From the IMG/VR virus record IMGVR_UViG_2654587772_000002: a DNA stretch of 64,000 bases, one strand, 5' to 3'. This DNA comes from a virus. Its lineage: Duplodnaviria > Heunggongvirae > Uroviricota > Caudoviricetes. Positions within the stretch are counted from its first letter, which is position 1; every line of letters begins with the position of its first letter. Under the pieces are notes generated by a model. The model had not been told where the DNA came from. It ran no database searches and saw only the letters and a program-made list of their open reading frames with translations. Made by a program: the position numbers and the translations under genes. Of this stretch, positions 35,867-40,048 are shown piece by piece.

Positions 35867-36764
35867 GCACTGGAAAAACATTACTATTTATAAACTTTCT
35901 CGTGAGGCGGATCTGACCGACTTAGAAGATAAAAAGAAAATGATCCTTTTCACGCCATGCGGTAGTCAGGATATGGCCAAGTTCGGTTTTGTATCTCCAT
36001 TTGGTGATAATTCCGAAGTTATCGCTATGCATGGAAATGGTTTTATCCTTGTTGAAGCAAAGCGCGAAACAAAAATTCTTCCCCCGCCGGTTATCCAGCG
36101 AGCTATTCAAGAAAAAATTGAAAAACTTGAGCAAGAACAAGCGCGTAAACTGAAGAAAACAGAGAGGGACTCCCTGAAAGACGAAGTTCTGCATTCTCTT
36201 CTGCCACGGGCTTTTTCAAAGTTTTCTGTTATCCAGGCGATCTACGACGGTTCAACTAAACGTATCTATATCAATGCCAGCGCGCGGCAGGCAGAGGATA
36301 TGCTCGCGCTTATGCGTAAATCTCTGGGTTCTCTTCCTGTTGTTCCCCTAAGTGTTGAAAATCCCATTGAATTAACGCTGACCGACTGGGTACGTGATGG
36401 TAGTGCTCCACAGGGATTTCAAATGGGGGATGCGGCAGAACTTAAGGCAGTGCTTGAGGATGGCGGTATTGCCCGAGTGAAAAAGCAGGATTTGGGAAGC
36501 GATGAAATTTCCACACACCTGGAAGCTGGCAAGCTCGTCACTAAGTTGGCACTCGACTGGCAGAACCGCATTAAATTTACACTGGACCATAACTTGAGCC
36601 TTACCAGCGTCAAATTTGCGGATGAATTGCTTGAGCAGAACTCTGATATTGATAGTGAAGATGTAGCGCAGCGACTGGACGCAGATTTCTTCCTGTTGAC
36701 CAGTGAAATTTCGTGCCTGGTTGATGCTCTGGTAAATGCCCTTGGTGGAGAGGCTAAGCAGTGA
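35859..36764 (+). CDS. rdgC: recombination-associated protein RdgC homologue
   Basis: start [14 protein letters not shown], conserved [11 protein letters not shown] and [14 protein letters not shown] blocks of RdgC. Confidence 0.8.
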
Positions 36765-39700
36765 AAGAACTGTGCTATGGATCTGTTTGCAGTGGAATTG
36801 AAGCCGCGAGTATTGCCTGGGAACCGTTGGGTATGCGTCCGGCGTGGTTTGCTGAAATAGAGCCTTTTCCATCTGCCGTTCTTGCGCACCGCTGGCCCCA
36901 TGTCGCCAACCTTGGCGACATGACAAAACTCGCCCAAAAAGTCCAGGCTGGAGAAATTGAAGCCCCTGATGTGCTGGTGGGAGGGACACCATGTTTTACC
37001 GCGGGGCATATGGTTCTTTGTAAAAATGGTTATAAACCAATAGAAGATGTTTGCCCTGGCGATTACGTAGTCAGTCATCTCGGGCGGTTACAACAAGTAA
37101 AAAGAGTTGGTTCAAAAATAGCTAATACGGGGTTACTTAATGCCGTTGGGCAGCCTTTAGGTATAAGAACAACCAATGACCATCCCTTCCTGGCGGTTCG
37201 GTGGAAAGCCCAAAACACCCGGAAAAATGGCACATATTTTAAGAGAGAGTTGTTGTCTGAACCGGAATGGCGAGCAGCATGTGATATGCCGGGATATCAA
37301 TGGTGTGCTCTAACTAATTTCAATATTGCATCTCCAGATATTTGTTCTCGGTTCTTGTCTGAAGAACAGGCTATGTATCTTGCGGGCGCTTATGTTGGCG
37401 ATGGATATATTAGGAGATGGAAAGGTAAATCTAAGAAGGCGGTTGTTTTTGGCATAAATTGCCAGAAGTTGAGAAAGTTTCATTGCCGCATACCAGAAAA
37501 CATATTTTCCGTGGCAAGCGAAATCCGAGGGAGCATCAAAGTAACCTTGAATGATACGTGTTATGCCAATTGGCTTAATGAACATTTTGGCGAGTTAAGC
37601 CATGCTAAGCGTATCCCTGCATGGGTGATGTCGCATCCATTGCGTCATGTGTTTTTACAAGGCTATCTTGATACTGATGGGACACCAAGTGGTAAAGCGG
37701 GATTTAGAATTAATAGTGTTAGTCCTGCGCTTGCTTGGGGCGTTGCGGAGTTGTCACAGACTTGTGGTTATGTTTCTTCGGTCAGCTTTATTGAAGTTGA
37801 GCCCAAAAAAGTGATTGAGGATCGCGTGGTAAATCAACGGAATTATTATCAGGTAACAATCTGCCCGCAGAAATTGTCACGTAAATCAAGATTGGCTCAT
37901 GGAATGCTTTTACGAACAGTCAAAGAGTTTAAATCGGTAGGCCTAGATACTGTATACAACATAGAAGTCGAAGGTGATCATTCCTATATCCTCAATGGTG
38001 CGGTGGTCCATAACTGTCAGGCATTCAGTATCGCTGGATTACGTGGTGGGCTTGATGATGAGCGTGGCGCGCTAACTTTAAAGTATGTGGAGCTTGCAAA
38101 TGCAATTGACGACAAACGGGCTGAGTCATTTCTCAAACCATCCGTTATCGTCTGGGAAAATGTCCCAGGAGTCTTGTCATCGGCAGATAACGCCTTCGGA
38201 TGTTTCCTTGCCGGATTGGCTGGAGAAGATGCGCCATTTGAACCAGGTGATCGACCTGAATCAGGAAAAAGTAACGCGTTCTGGCGGTGGGATGTCAAAA
38301 CCGGTTGCCATGCTCCAAAGTGGCCGCAGTGTGGTTGTATTTATGGACCGCAGCGAAAAGTGGCCTGGAGAATCCTTGATGCCCAATACTTCGGAGTGGC
38401 ACAACGACGCCGACGCGTGTTTGTTGTCGCAAGTGCTCGAACAGACCTCGATCCCGCAACGGTACTTTTTGAGTTCGAAGGCGTGCGCCGGAATATTGCG
38501 CCGAGCCGAAAAAAGAAGGAAATCACTTCCGCCATTATTGCAAATGGCGCTGCAATCAGTGGCGAAAGCCTAAATCCATGCCTACACGCTGACATGCCAC
38601 CCGGTATGAAATCGACGAAAGCCGTAAACGCTTTCAGGATGGCAGCATTTGGGGAATATATTGACGATGAAACCGCATCGACAGTAAAGGCAAGAGATTT
38701 TAAAGATGCCACTGACCTTGCCGTTTTTAGCAGCACAGGAGCAGGTTTTTGGTCAGAAGGGCATGGTACATTGCGGGCACGTGAGCAAGAAAGCCATGAG
38801 CATCTTGTTACATTGGCTTTTCCTGAGCGTATGAGCGGTACACAACATGCTGCAACTAAGAATACTTCACCATCTCTAATGGCTAAAAATCCAACAGCTG
38901 TTTGCTATGAAGTAAGAAACGCAGAAGTAGCTGTCCGCCGTCTTACCCCTGTCGAATGTGAAAGGCTGCAAGGTTTTCCTGATGGGCATACGTTGATCCC
39001 GACGGAAAAGCGTAAAAAAGTTAATTCAGATGAACTGGCATATCTTCGCAATCACTATCCAGATTTAAGCGAAGAAGAGGCCGCGATGCTTGCAGCTGAC
39101 GGGCCGCGTTACAAAGCGATCGGCAATAGTATGGCAATACCAGTAATGCGCTGGATTGGCGATCGGATTACTAAGGCCGTATGTCGGCAGAAAGAAGGAA
39201 GTGAAACAAAAGAGCGAAAAGTTAAACCAGCGGCAGAATTCGAACGGTCCATATTCAAATGGGCTGGTGGAAAATTTGGTGTTCTGGAACAAATCTTTCG
39301 CTATTTGCCAGAAGGGAAGCGCCTGATTGAACCTTTCGTTGGTGGCGGAGCTGTCTTCATGAATGCCGGATACCAGGAAAATCTGCTAAATGATGTGAAT
39401 GCTGACCTGATTAACTTTTACAAGACTCTGCAACGCGAGGCGCATTCACTTATCACTCTGGCACATCGTTTCTTCCAGGACTACAACACACAGGAAGGAT
39501 ACCTGGCAGTACGGAATGCGTTTAACAAACAAGTCTATGATGATTTACATCGCGCAGCGGCGTTTTTGTTCCTGAACCGACATTGTTTTAACGGATTGAC
39601 GCGTTACAACCAGGCCGGTGAGTTCAATGTCGGTTATGGGAAGTATAAAACTCCGTATTTCCCATTGCAGGAGATGGAAGCCTTCCTTGGTGCGGAAGGG

Positions 39701-40048
39701 CGTTCTGAGTTTGTATGTGGTGATTTTGCTGCGGTGATTGAAGCTGCCGGAGAAGGAGATGTCATCTTTTGCGATCCGCCGTATGAACCGCTCCCAAATA
39801 CAGAGGGATTCACGAACTATTCCGGTCATGACTTTAAGTTTGAAGAGCAAAAACGCCTGGTGTCTCTGTTGACGGATGCTCATCGCCGAGGTGCAAAGGT
39901 TCTAATTACTAACAGTGGCGCGCCAAATATCAGAGAGCTTTATCATGACAGTGGCTTCAGAGTGGAACCTCTTTTTGCCAGACGTTCTGTGTCTTGTAAG
40001 GGGGATACTCGAGGTGTAGCTCATGACGTTTTAGGTATATTGCTCTAA
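36761..40048 (+). CDS. dmt: bifunctional DNA methyltransferase (N-terminal cytosine-C5 MTase, C-terminal Dam-like N6-adenine MTase), interrupted by an intein
   Basis: C5-MTase motifs ([46 protein letters not shown]); Dam-like C-terminus (KWAGGK, DPPYEP). Confidence 0.85.
36992..38014 (+). other. intein with LAGLIDADG homing-endonuclease domain inside dmt
   Basis: insert begins with Cys after GGTP and ends VVHN before CQAFSIAG; two LAGLIDADG-like blocks ([24 protein letters not shown]); 341 codons. Confidence 0.7.

Follow-up and report, generated by a model that had tools for sequence, protein, structure and literature searches.

The locus considered here lies in a viral DNA (Caudoviricetes) of 64,000 nucleotides (nt), hereafter the window, filed as IMG/VR record IMGVR_UViG_2654587772_000002, which from position 11187 onward is a P1-type phage-plasmid. 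A single open reading frame (ORF) at 36761..40048 of the plus strand starts with GTG and encodes 1095 amino acids (aa). Its start overlaps the stop codon of the preceding gene, hrdC, by 4 nt, an arrangement shared with phage P1, and megablast of the gene retrieves phages P1 and P7, RCS47, SJ46 and their relatives at 96-98.5% identity. The gene order is likewise that of the P1 record, since the C1 operator Odmt (Op68), uhr, hrdC, dmt, the operator Obanab (Op72ab), tRNA-Asn, tRNA-Thr, tciA and ban were all found in the window. Given this order and the 99% identity of its exteins to the P1 protein, the ORF is the orthologue of phage P1 Dmt. However, 341 of its 1095 residues (aa 78-418, nt 36992..38014) show no methylase similarity and match instead Hint, LAGLIDADG and intein profiles, and the gene is very probably the dmt of a P1-type phage-plasmid that has been invaded by a mobile class-1 intein (Table 1).

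A preliminary description of this DNA had presented the product as an orphan bifunctional methyltransferase comparable to P1 Dmt, with a cytosine-C5 domain in the N-terminal two thirds and a Dam-like domain at the C-terminus. Domain searches recover both domains, and the motifs then named (KWAGGK, DPPYEP and C5 motifs I, VI, VIII and X) are in place, motif IV being split by the intein. The C5 methylase family PF00145 reaches 104.3 bits on the unspliced protein (cut-off 22), whereas TIGR00675, with 97.4, stays just below its cut-off of 100.65. The C5 motifs follow one another in order, as I (CSGIEAAS, aa 10-17), VI (ENVPG, 466-470), VIII (QRRRR, 548-552), IX (726-740) and X (GNSMAIPV, 788-795), and only motif IV (GTPC..QAFS) needs conceptual splicing to become contiguous. 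The 754-aa protein so obtained raises the PF00145 score to 124.7 bits, in a single continuous match across motifs I-VI. The C5 domain does lie in the N-terminal portion, but its extent had been inflated by the 341 non-methylase residues. The Dam-type domain is recognized by PF02086 (192 bits) and by TIGR00571 'dam' (248.8 bits, cut-off 114.85; aa 830-1089), and contains KWAGGK (aa 833-838), the S-adenosylmethionine motif FVGGGAV (859-865) and the catalytic DPPY (1005-1008) within DPPYEP (1005-1010). The score for the E. coli Dam equivalog NF008152 (243 against 441) is lower than required, as expected for a phage paralogue.

The alignment with P1 Dmt (754 aa) gives 99% identity everywhere outside the block aa 78-418, which is exactly what P1 lacks. 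The junctions read ...VLVGGTP/CFTAGHMV and NGAVVHN/CQAFSIAG..., in front of the uninterrupted GTP/CQAFS of the empty P1 protein, so that the insertion lies within C5 motif IV (PCQ), directly after Pro77 and before the catalytic Cys. This block parts the motif IV Pro from the catalytic Cys, and the unspliced protein therefore cannot form a C5 active site. Moreover, a single residue, Cys419, is the nucleophile at +1 for splicing as well as the catalytic Cys in this motif, which means that C5 activity strictly requires splicing. Profile searches on the ORF detect Hint_2 at aa 77-126, LAGLIDADG_3 at aa 298-361 and the C-terminal intein profile TIGR01443 (intein_Cterm) at aa 398-419; TIGR01443 scores 28.9 bits (cut-off 15.6) and the endonuclease family PF14528 36.6 bits (cut-off 22.5). 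All the residues expected of class-1 splicing are present: C1, block B T61-N-D-H64 (TTNDHPF, nt 37169..37189), H330 in block F, H340-N341 in block G and the Cys at +1. The two LAGLIDADG motifs, LAGAYVGDG (37379..37405, with Asp137) and LQGYLDTDG (37655..37681, with Asp229), keep their acidic residues. In 30 out of 30 full intein copies, the residues C1, T61, H64, N323, H330, H340 and N341 of the splicing domain are invariant, and so are D137, K206 and D229 of the endonuclease. The C-terminus also aligns with that of the Spl DnaX mini-intein, and the intein DNA has a GC content of 42.8%, as compared to 54.5% and 48.1% in its flanks. The calculated mass of the precursor is 121.8 kDa, which splicing would divide into a Dmt of 83.5 kDa and an intein of 38.3 kDa (isoelectric point 9.3). 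Judged by its sequence, the block is a canonical class-1 intein with a nested LAGLIDADG homing endonuclease, for which both splicing and DNA cleavage are predicted.

A sequence-only search of the PDB is nearly blind to this protein, with a best E-value of 0.0015 against a mini-intein C-terminus, and fold comparison was needed. An AlphaFold2 model of the intein, built on 16 homologues, has a mean predicted local distance difference test (pLDDT) of 93.1 and a predicted template modelling score (pTM) of 0.89. The best PDB matches of this model by Foldseek are the intein TliVMA (7qsu, E-value 4e-17), followed by PI-SceI, PI-PfuI and PI-TkoII (PDB 2cw7). Next come the free LAGLIDADG enzymes I-DmoI, I-SceI and I-Tsp061I, which match the central domain. 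Both a HINT fold and a pseudo-dimeric LAGLIDADG fold are thus recognized in the modelled intein.

Table 1. Features of the dmt region and of the restriction-modification genes, in window positions.
Feature	Position	Strand	Basis
C1 operator Odmt (Op68), ahead of the uhr-hrdC-dmt operon	35494..35510	+	1 mismatch to consensus; position as Odmt/Pdmt in the P1 record
hrdC (RdgC-family), 301-aa clean translation	35859..36764	+	Pfam RdgC, 328 bits
N-extein, Dmt aa 1-77: C5 motif I, ends ..VLVGGTP (first half of motif IV)	36761..36991	+	Aligns with P1 Dmt aa 1-77; PF00145
Intein, 341 aa (ORF aa 78-418), CFTAGH... to ...VVHN	36992..38014	+	1023 nt; no counterpart in P1 Dmt; profiles, model, Foldseek
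Intein, N-terminal splicing (HINT) part	36992..37306 (boundary approximate)	+	Block A Cys1, block B; beta-strand region 1-107 of the model
Intein, putative LAGLIDADG (DOD) homing-endonuclease domain	37307..37876 (boundaries approximate)	+	PF14528; alpha/beta region 124-295 of the model
Intein, C-terminal splicing part: block F (37952..37987), block G NGAVVHN (His340, Asn341)	37877..38014	+	TIGR01443
C-extein, C5 methyltransferase part: Cys419/CQAFS, motifs VI and VIII, variable target-recognition region, motifs IX and X	38015..39247	+	
C-extein, Dam-type (D12 class) N6-adenine methyltransferase domain: KWAGGK, FVGGGAV, DPPY	39248..40045	+	PF02086, TIGR00571
Divalent C1 operator Obanab: Op72a 40039..40055 (+), Op72b 40050..40066 (-)	40039..40066		Consensus matches; P1/P7 annotation
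hsdR, with EcoR124-type C-terminal domain	56023..59139	-	
hsdS	59262..60473	-	
hsdM	60470..62032	-	

The intein is common. Its 1023 nt are found in 151 of 5426 complete E. coli genomes (~2.8%), at 148 plasmid and 4 chromosomal places, and all 152 records cover at least 80% of it. A 400-nt probe across the empty P1 site was used in the same genomes to count empty sites; dmt is present in 491 of them, intein-occupied in 151 and uninterrupted in 337, so that about 31% of dmt genes are occupied. Among PLSDB plasmids the count is 133 occupied against 361, and the occupied ones come from Escherichia (118, including E. fergusonii and E. albertii), Salmonella (14) and Shigella (1), whereas IMG/VR contigs comprise 27 occupied and 77 empty sites. 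No decayed or mini-intein copies were found, and the few partial matches consist of a 79% copy in two places of one plasmid and two matches of 76 nt, one of which sits at the start of its record. A P1 laboratory stock whose genome was determined in work on Argonaute (OP279344) has the intein as well. Its 87% coverage in this record might have indicated a shortened intein, but the element is full length and the gap corresponds to a different, shorter target-recognition region (TRD).

Alleles were compared in a set of 13 fetched sequences, later extended to 117 (34 occupied and 83 empty), and a common junction is seen in every one of them. The full-length copies are all open, with no stop codon in 30 out of 30. 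Occupied genes belong to three TRD backgrounds, with intein-subtracted Dmt lengths of 672, 754 and 807 aa (12, 7 and 2 copies, respectively), and identical inteins occur in different TRD classes. In seven occupied alleles, the mean identity is 99.2% for the intein (minimum 98.5%), 96.3% for the N-extein (minimum 92.2%) and 97.4% for the proximal C-extein, and occupied and empty alleles are interleaved by extein similarity. The third base of the Pro77 codon, at position -1 from the insertion, is A (CCA) in 34 out of 34 occupied alleles and T (CCT) in 83 out of 83 empty ones (Fisher test, 3e-30), a synonymous difference that is accompanied by other synonymous markers enriched in occupied alleles at -22, -7..-16 and +24. 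Together they look like a short co-conversion tract. The CCA codon at -1, which a precise loss would leave behind, is absent from all 77 empty IMG/VR contigs and from the 6 empty fetched alleles, which suggests that precise loss is rare or absent and that empty alleles would have never been invaded, rather than being formerly invaded ones. Two N-flank haplotypes (window 36975..36991 plus flanks) accompany the intein, GACGTGCTCGTCGGGGGAACACCA in 27 of the 34 occupied alleles and GATGTGCTGGTGGGAGGGACACCA in the other 7, including that of the window. The latter, found in none of the 83 empty alleles, may come from another donor lineage or reflect co-conversion over a longer tract.

The variants that distinguish the copies are unevenly distributed between the two parts of the intein. 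Three nonsynonymous and nine synonymous changes in the splicing domain give an omega of ~0.10 (binomial p = 1.8e-4), which places the domain clearly under purifying selection, with splicing maintained. In the endonuclease domain there are 14 nonsynonymous and 7 synonymous changes, with an omega of ~0.56 that is not significantly below 1 (p = 0.16). As for the exteins, N-extein defects occur in 2 of the 34 occupied alleles, one of them a poly-C sequencing artefact. The other (L095, IMG/VR 2721755710_000007) has an amber triplet at dmt codon 62 (TTG to TAG), upstream of an intact intein, and is possibly a pseudogene or a sequencing error.

A likely pathway can be drawn from the canonical class-1 splicing reactions and from LAGLIDADG homing. 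Transcription from the C1-repressed Pdmt would yield the 121.8-kDa precursor, from which aa 78-418 would be excised through an N-S acyl shift at Cys78, trans-thioesterification to Cys419, cyclisation of Asn418 and a final S-N shift. The products would be the 83.5-kDa Dmt of 754 aa, with GGTPCQAFS restored, and a free 38-kDa LAGLIDADG endonuclease. C5 methylation would have to await splicing, whereas the C-terminal Dam domain may already work in the precursor. When two P1-type genomes share a cell, the endonuclease would cut the intein-less dmt around ...GGNACNCCT/TGTCAGGCATTC... (the empty site of P1 reads GGGGGTACGCCT/TGTCAGGCATTCAGTATCGC, and an ACACCT variant also exists). Finally, repair off the occupied allele would copy in the intein together with a few flanking bases. 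As dmt is under the C1-repressed Pdmt, the endonuclease would be made mainly at infection or induction, when a second P1-type genome may be present.

It is also conceivable, though rather improbable, that the intein is more than a passive parasite and serves as a post-translational switch or as a weapon of competition. Since it sits on the catalytic Cys and both splice nucleophiles are Cys, splicing could be conditional, depending for example on redox state or timing, and 5-methylcytosine (m5C) formation could in this way be uncoupled from an always-available Dam activity during P1 development. As a weapon, the endonuclease could cleave the dmt of intein-less P1-type rivals in co-infection or superinfection, with an advantage in replication or packaging beyond homing itself.

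Several points weigh against a fully active, homing intein. The Hint_2 score of 28.5 is barely above its threshold of 28.4 and Intein_splicing, with 22.1, stays under 35.8, so that the intein call rests on motifs, structure and the clean insertion rather than on these profiles. The endonuclease could be decaying, its omega of ~0.56 being statistically indistinguishable from neutrality. Ordinary homologous recombination among P1-type plasmids could also generate the flank markers and the mosaic backgrounds, and the mosaic structure of P1-type dmt genes is plain from their exchanged TRD modules. Besides, if the -1 base matters for recognition, the present-day empty alleles, all with T, might be poor targets. 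It is a possible, if unlikely, alternative that the intein is competent for splicing, with an inactive or decaying endonuclease, and spreads through vertical inheritance and general homologous recombination without active homing, a situation with which the absence of the -1 marker from empty alleles would also agree. However, a decaying enzyme fits poorly with the invariance of D137, D229 and K206, with the 30 full copies free of stops and deletions, and with the coverage of at least 80% in each of the 152 complete-genome records. An intein markedly less diverged than its flanks, present in three TRD classes and in records of several Escherichia species, Salmonella and Shigella, also argues for mobility.

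The readings that dispense with a working intein fare worse. A dead insertion, which would not splice and would leave the C5 domain permanently disrupted, with the C-terminal Dam domain as the only part that matters to the phage, agrees with the documented function of P1 dmt, which is limited to the Dam (GATC) activity (PMC12707154), with an odd Trp74 in motif IV of the reference P1 protein and with the amber codon in the N-extein of L095. It is nonetheless quite improbable in view of the strong purifying selection on the splicing domain, the invariant splice residues in 30 out of 30 copies, the intact C5 motifs I, VI, VIII, IX and X of the exteins, and a TRD that has diversified into several intact length classes, as expected of a working enzyme. 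That the 1095-aa protein is a plain orphan C5 plus Dam methyltransferase, methylase throughout its N-terminal two thirds and acting directly in antirestriction or epigenetics, is scarcely credible. Its two methylase domains are real, no restriction gene adjoins it and databases name it only 'Dam family site-specific DNA-(adenine-N6)-methyltransferase', but aa 78-418 resemble inteins in profile and structure and not methylases, P1 Dmt lacks exactly these residues, and the C5 site cannot form around them. Equally hard to sustain is a bacterial intein-like (BIL) or domesticated endonuclease domain that would make a single-chain enzyme of the restriction-modification type. Methylase and nuclease do share one polypeptide, and a BIL domain appears as a weak match in the PDB sequence search (E-value 0.91); against this stand the full class-1 termini (C1 and HN), followed at +1 by a Cys that is the host protein's own conserved residue, the precise in-frame presence/absence polymorphism at a conserved active-site motif, and best structural matches that are true inteins with nested LAGLIDADG domains. 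An invaded dmt gene thus remains the preferred interpretation.

Regarding the methyltransferase itself, the best explanation is that it would act as P1 Dmt, with GATC methylation for pac packaging plus a predicted m5C activity of allele-variable specificity. Methylation of GATC in the pac sites for packaging is the documented role of P1 dmt, which is essential in Dam- hosts (review PMC12707154), whereas the P1 record (AF234172) states the C5 cytosine activity only as 'perhaps'. The antirestriction or epigenetic role that had been proposed would be conjectural for the C5 part of Dmt. The TRD (about aa 585-725, window ~38513..38935) is replaced in other alleles, and its modular nature is also observed in the intein-subtracted Dmt lengths among P1-type elements (565, 604, 609, 640, 672, 715, 754, 759, 807 and 862 aa). 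Such variety implies, at the sequence level, that several m5C specificities have been swapped by recombination.

The reference P1 (mod749::IS5 c1.100; L001, AF234172) has Trp74 in motif IV (VWGTPCQ), while the other 12 fetched alleles have Gly. The TGG codon 74 was found in 1 of the 83 empty N-flank haplotypes, that of reference P1 alone, and the idea of a change typical of empty alleles, conferring immunity to the endonuclease, was rejected on this count. Trp74 may impair the C5 domain of the reference strain, and this could be the reason that no m5C activity has ever been established for P1 Dmt.

The stop codon of dmt (40046..40048) overlaps a C1-operator-like site, as previously noted. The site is real, an exact match to the 17-bp asymmetric C1 consensus ATTGCTCTAATAAATTT at 40039..40055, with an inverted partner at 40050..40066 (2 mismatches). 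In the whole window there are 9 matches to this consensus at 3 mismatches or fewer, against 0.23 expected. As a clue to the regulation of dmt, however, the site misleads: it is homologous to the mapped divalent operator Obanab/Op72ab over the ban promoters in the P1 and P7 annotation, and belongs to the downstream ban operon, C1 binding being predicted. By sequence and position, dmt itself appears to be under Odmt/Op68. A search of the gene region for promoters and terminators yielded nothing beyond what shuffled sequence would give, and a 'terminator' at the intein junction was dismissed as a chance hairpin.

No restriction gene adjoins dmt, which has hrdC (RdgC) upstream and tRNA-Asn and tRNA-Thr as the next downstream features found, and the adjacent restriction endonuclease gene of a Type II restriction-modification (R-M) system is missing. 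The earlier label of an orphan methylase without cognate nuclease is therefore reasonable, except that the ORF itself would encode a homing endonuclease. The sole R-M genes in the window form a complete Type I hsdMSR set 16 kb downstream of dmt (56023..62032, minus strand) in this P1-like element, which is thus not without a restriction nuclease, but the Type I system has its own methylase.

Other RNA genes were noticed around the locus. Between the tRNA-Asn/tRNA-Thr pair and tciA, ARAGORN detects a tRNA-Ser (anticodon tga) at 41353..41439 (+), not in the annotated P1 region compared and not reported by Rfam at its gathering threshold, and a tRNA with anticodon CAT at 42403..42478 (+) is the counterpart of P1 trnI (tRNA-Ile2). 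Rfam matches at 16993..17045, 17114..17199 and 22112..22285 (+) correspond to the P1 immunity C4 antisense RNA with its a1/b1 target and to the sok antitoxin RNA of a hok/sok-type addiction module. The first part of the window (1..11186) harbours lambdoid prophage tail genes (J, Lom and tail fibre), 96.5% identical to phage 2G7b and with a GC content of up to 58%, which at 11186/11187 are abruptly joined to the middle of the P1 sit (transglycosylase) gene. This junction is spanned by no complete E. coli genome in the collection. Chromosome records of ST2747 with an identical Dmt protein have P1-like fragments inside broken lambdoid tail-fibre genes, and the window coordinates are not collinear with them. 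The junction stems either from chromosomal integration or rearrangement of a P1-type element, or from a chimeric assembly.

The intein has gone unflagged in about 2.8% of complete E. coli genomes (151 of 5426), an annotation gap that is also apparent in protein databases. A 90%-identity cluster of 3,523 proteins mixes the 1095-aa intein-bearing and the 754-aa intein-free forms, and among 40 members sampled all 30 that are named are called 'Dam family methyltransferase'. Judging from these sequences, an apparently functional and currently polymorphic intein sits at the catalytic Cys of the C5 domain of P1-type Dmt and is common in E. coli. Its biology is canonical, and its setting is a classic model phage, where an apparently intact natural intein with its homing endonuclease becomes available in the tractable pair E. 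coli/P1. With an occupied allele (OP279344) and an empty one (reference P1) at hand, homing, co-conversion and fitness effects are directly measurable. The dependence of C5 methylation by occupied alleles on splicing would matter for the methylomes of P1-type phage-plasmids, some of which, such as RCS47, also carry resistance genes. Moreover, the endonuclease is a candidate new LAGLIDADG specificity and a possible tool.

Among known systems, the closest to the host gene are P1 Dmt (AAQ14041, 754 aa; record AF234172) and P7 Dam, which have the same C5 plus Dam architecture, the same operon Odmt-uhr-hrdC-dmt, an Oban that covers the stop codon and, further downstream, the tRNAs and ban. Neither of these reference genes is interrupted, whereas the window allele has the 1023-nt intein at motif IV. 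The searchable literature, which excludes subscription sources, makes no mention of an intein in P1, P1-like phages, RCS47, dmt or phage-plasmids, and what it did return concerned toxin-intein engineering and phages of no relevance here. At the level of fold, PI-SceI (the yeast VMA1 intein), TliVMA/PhoVMA, PI-PfuI and PI-TkoII share the HINT domain, the nested LAGLIDADG endonuclease and the class-1 catalytic residues, with Foldseek E-values of 4e-17 to 3e-9 and query-normalised TM-scores of 0.54-0.63. They interrupt other host proteins, are only 11-17% identical in sequence and are larger (366-537 aa in the matched chains, versus 341 aa).

The nearest inteins are those of other C5 methylases. 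A word-index search found relatives with 29-52% identity at the same site in C5 methylases of Mannheimia haemolytica, metagenomes, Bacteroidia, Pseudonocardia and Parvibaculum. When 1.84 billion representatives were searched exhaustively with HMMER, 192 clusters reached E <= 1e-30; sequences could be retrieved for 147 of the top ones, and 95 of these have the junction xP/C...HN/CQ. Comparison with phage genomes by tblastn revealed related methylase inteins in Mannheimia phage vB_MhS_587AP2 (48%), Propionibacterium phage B22, the E. coli jumbo phages A4 and ph0011, Lactobacillus phage Nyseid and cluster-F mycobacteriophages. A C-5 methylase had also been listed as a previously reported intein host of actinophages (bioRxiv 10.1101/2025.01.02.630785).

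Two of these relatives deserve description. A protein of 1148 aa from the HMMER search (P0043) joins a C5 and a Dam domain as Dmt does, although it has diverged from the window Dmt (76% identity across the N-extein, 49% across the Dam domain), and the intein that occupies the same site in it is 57% identical. This points either to a long-standing link between the intein lineage and Dmt-type genes or to invasion on more than one occasion. A Mannheimia haemolytica protein of 439 aa (P0011, 578 contigs) has a 48%-identical intein at the same C5-methylase site, but its C-extein ends 23 residues past the splice junction (...VVHN/CQSDKGG...), leaving a truncated host methylase around an intact intein; in Mannheimia phage 587AP2 the region is annotated as two separate genes.

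LAGLIDADG inteins are also known from the phage N6/N4 methylases DNMT-1/2, where a patchy distribution and evidence of transfer between divergent methylases have been described (Kelley et al. 2016, PMC5050341; PMC9957025). Those of mycobacteriophages and other actinophages are ~27% identical to the P1-type Dmt intein by tblastn, and their hosts are N6/N4 (PF01555) methylases of Actinobacteria phages, with a different insertion site and extein family. The kind of intein found here, that of C5 methylases, is already known, and its P1-type Dmt member is unannotated. As with the other inteins of the PC/Q site, which interrupt the same point (xP/C...HN/CQxxS), measure 330-350 aa, contain a nested LAGLIDADG domain and are 27-57% identical to it (protein relatives, the named phages being matched by tblastn only), it splits a C5 methylase at its catalytic Cys. 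The P1-type Dmt intein is less than 60% identical to all other lineages found, and its host is the bifunctional C5 plus Dam protein of P1 phage-plasmids in Escherichia, Salmonella and Shigella.

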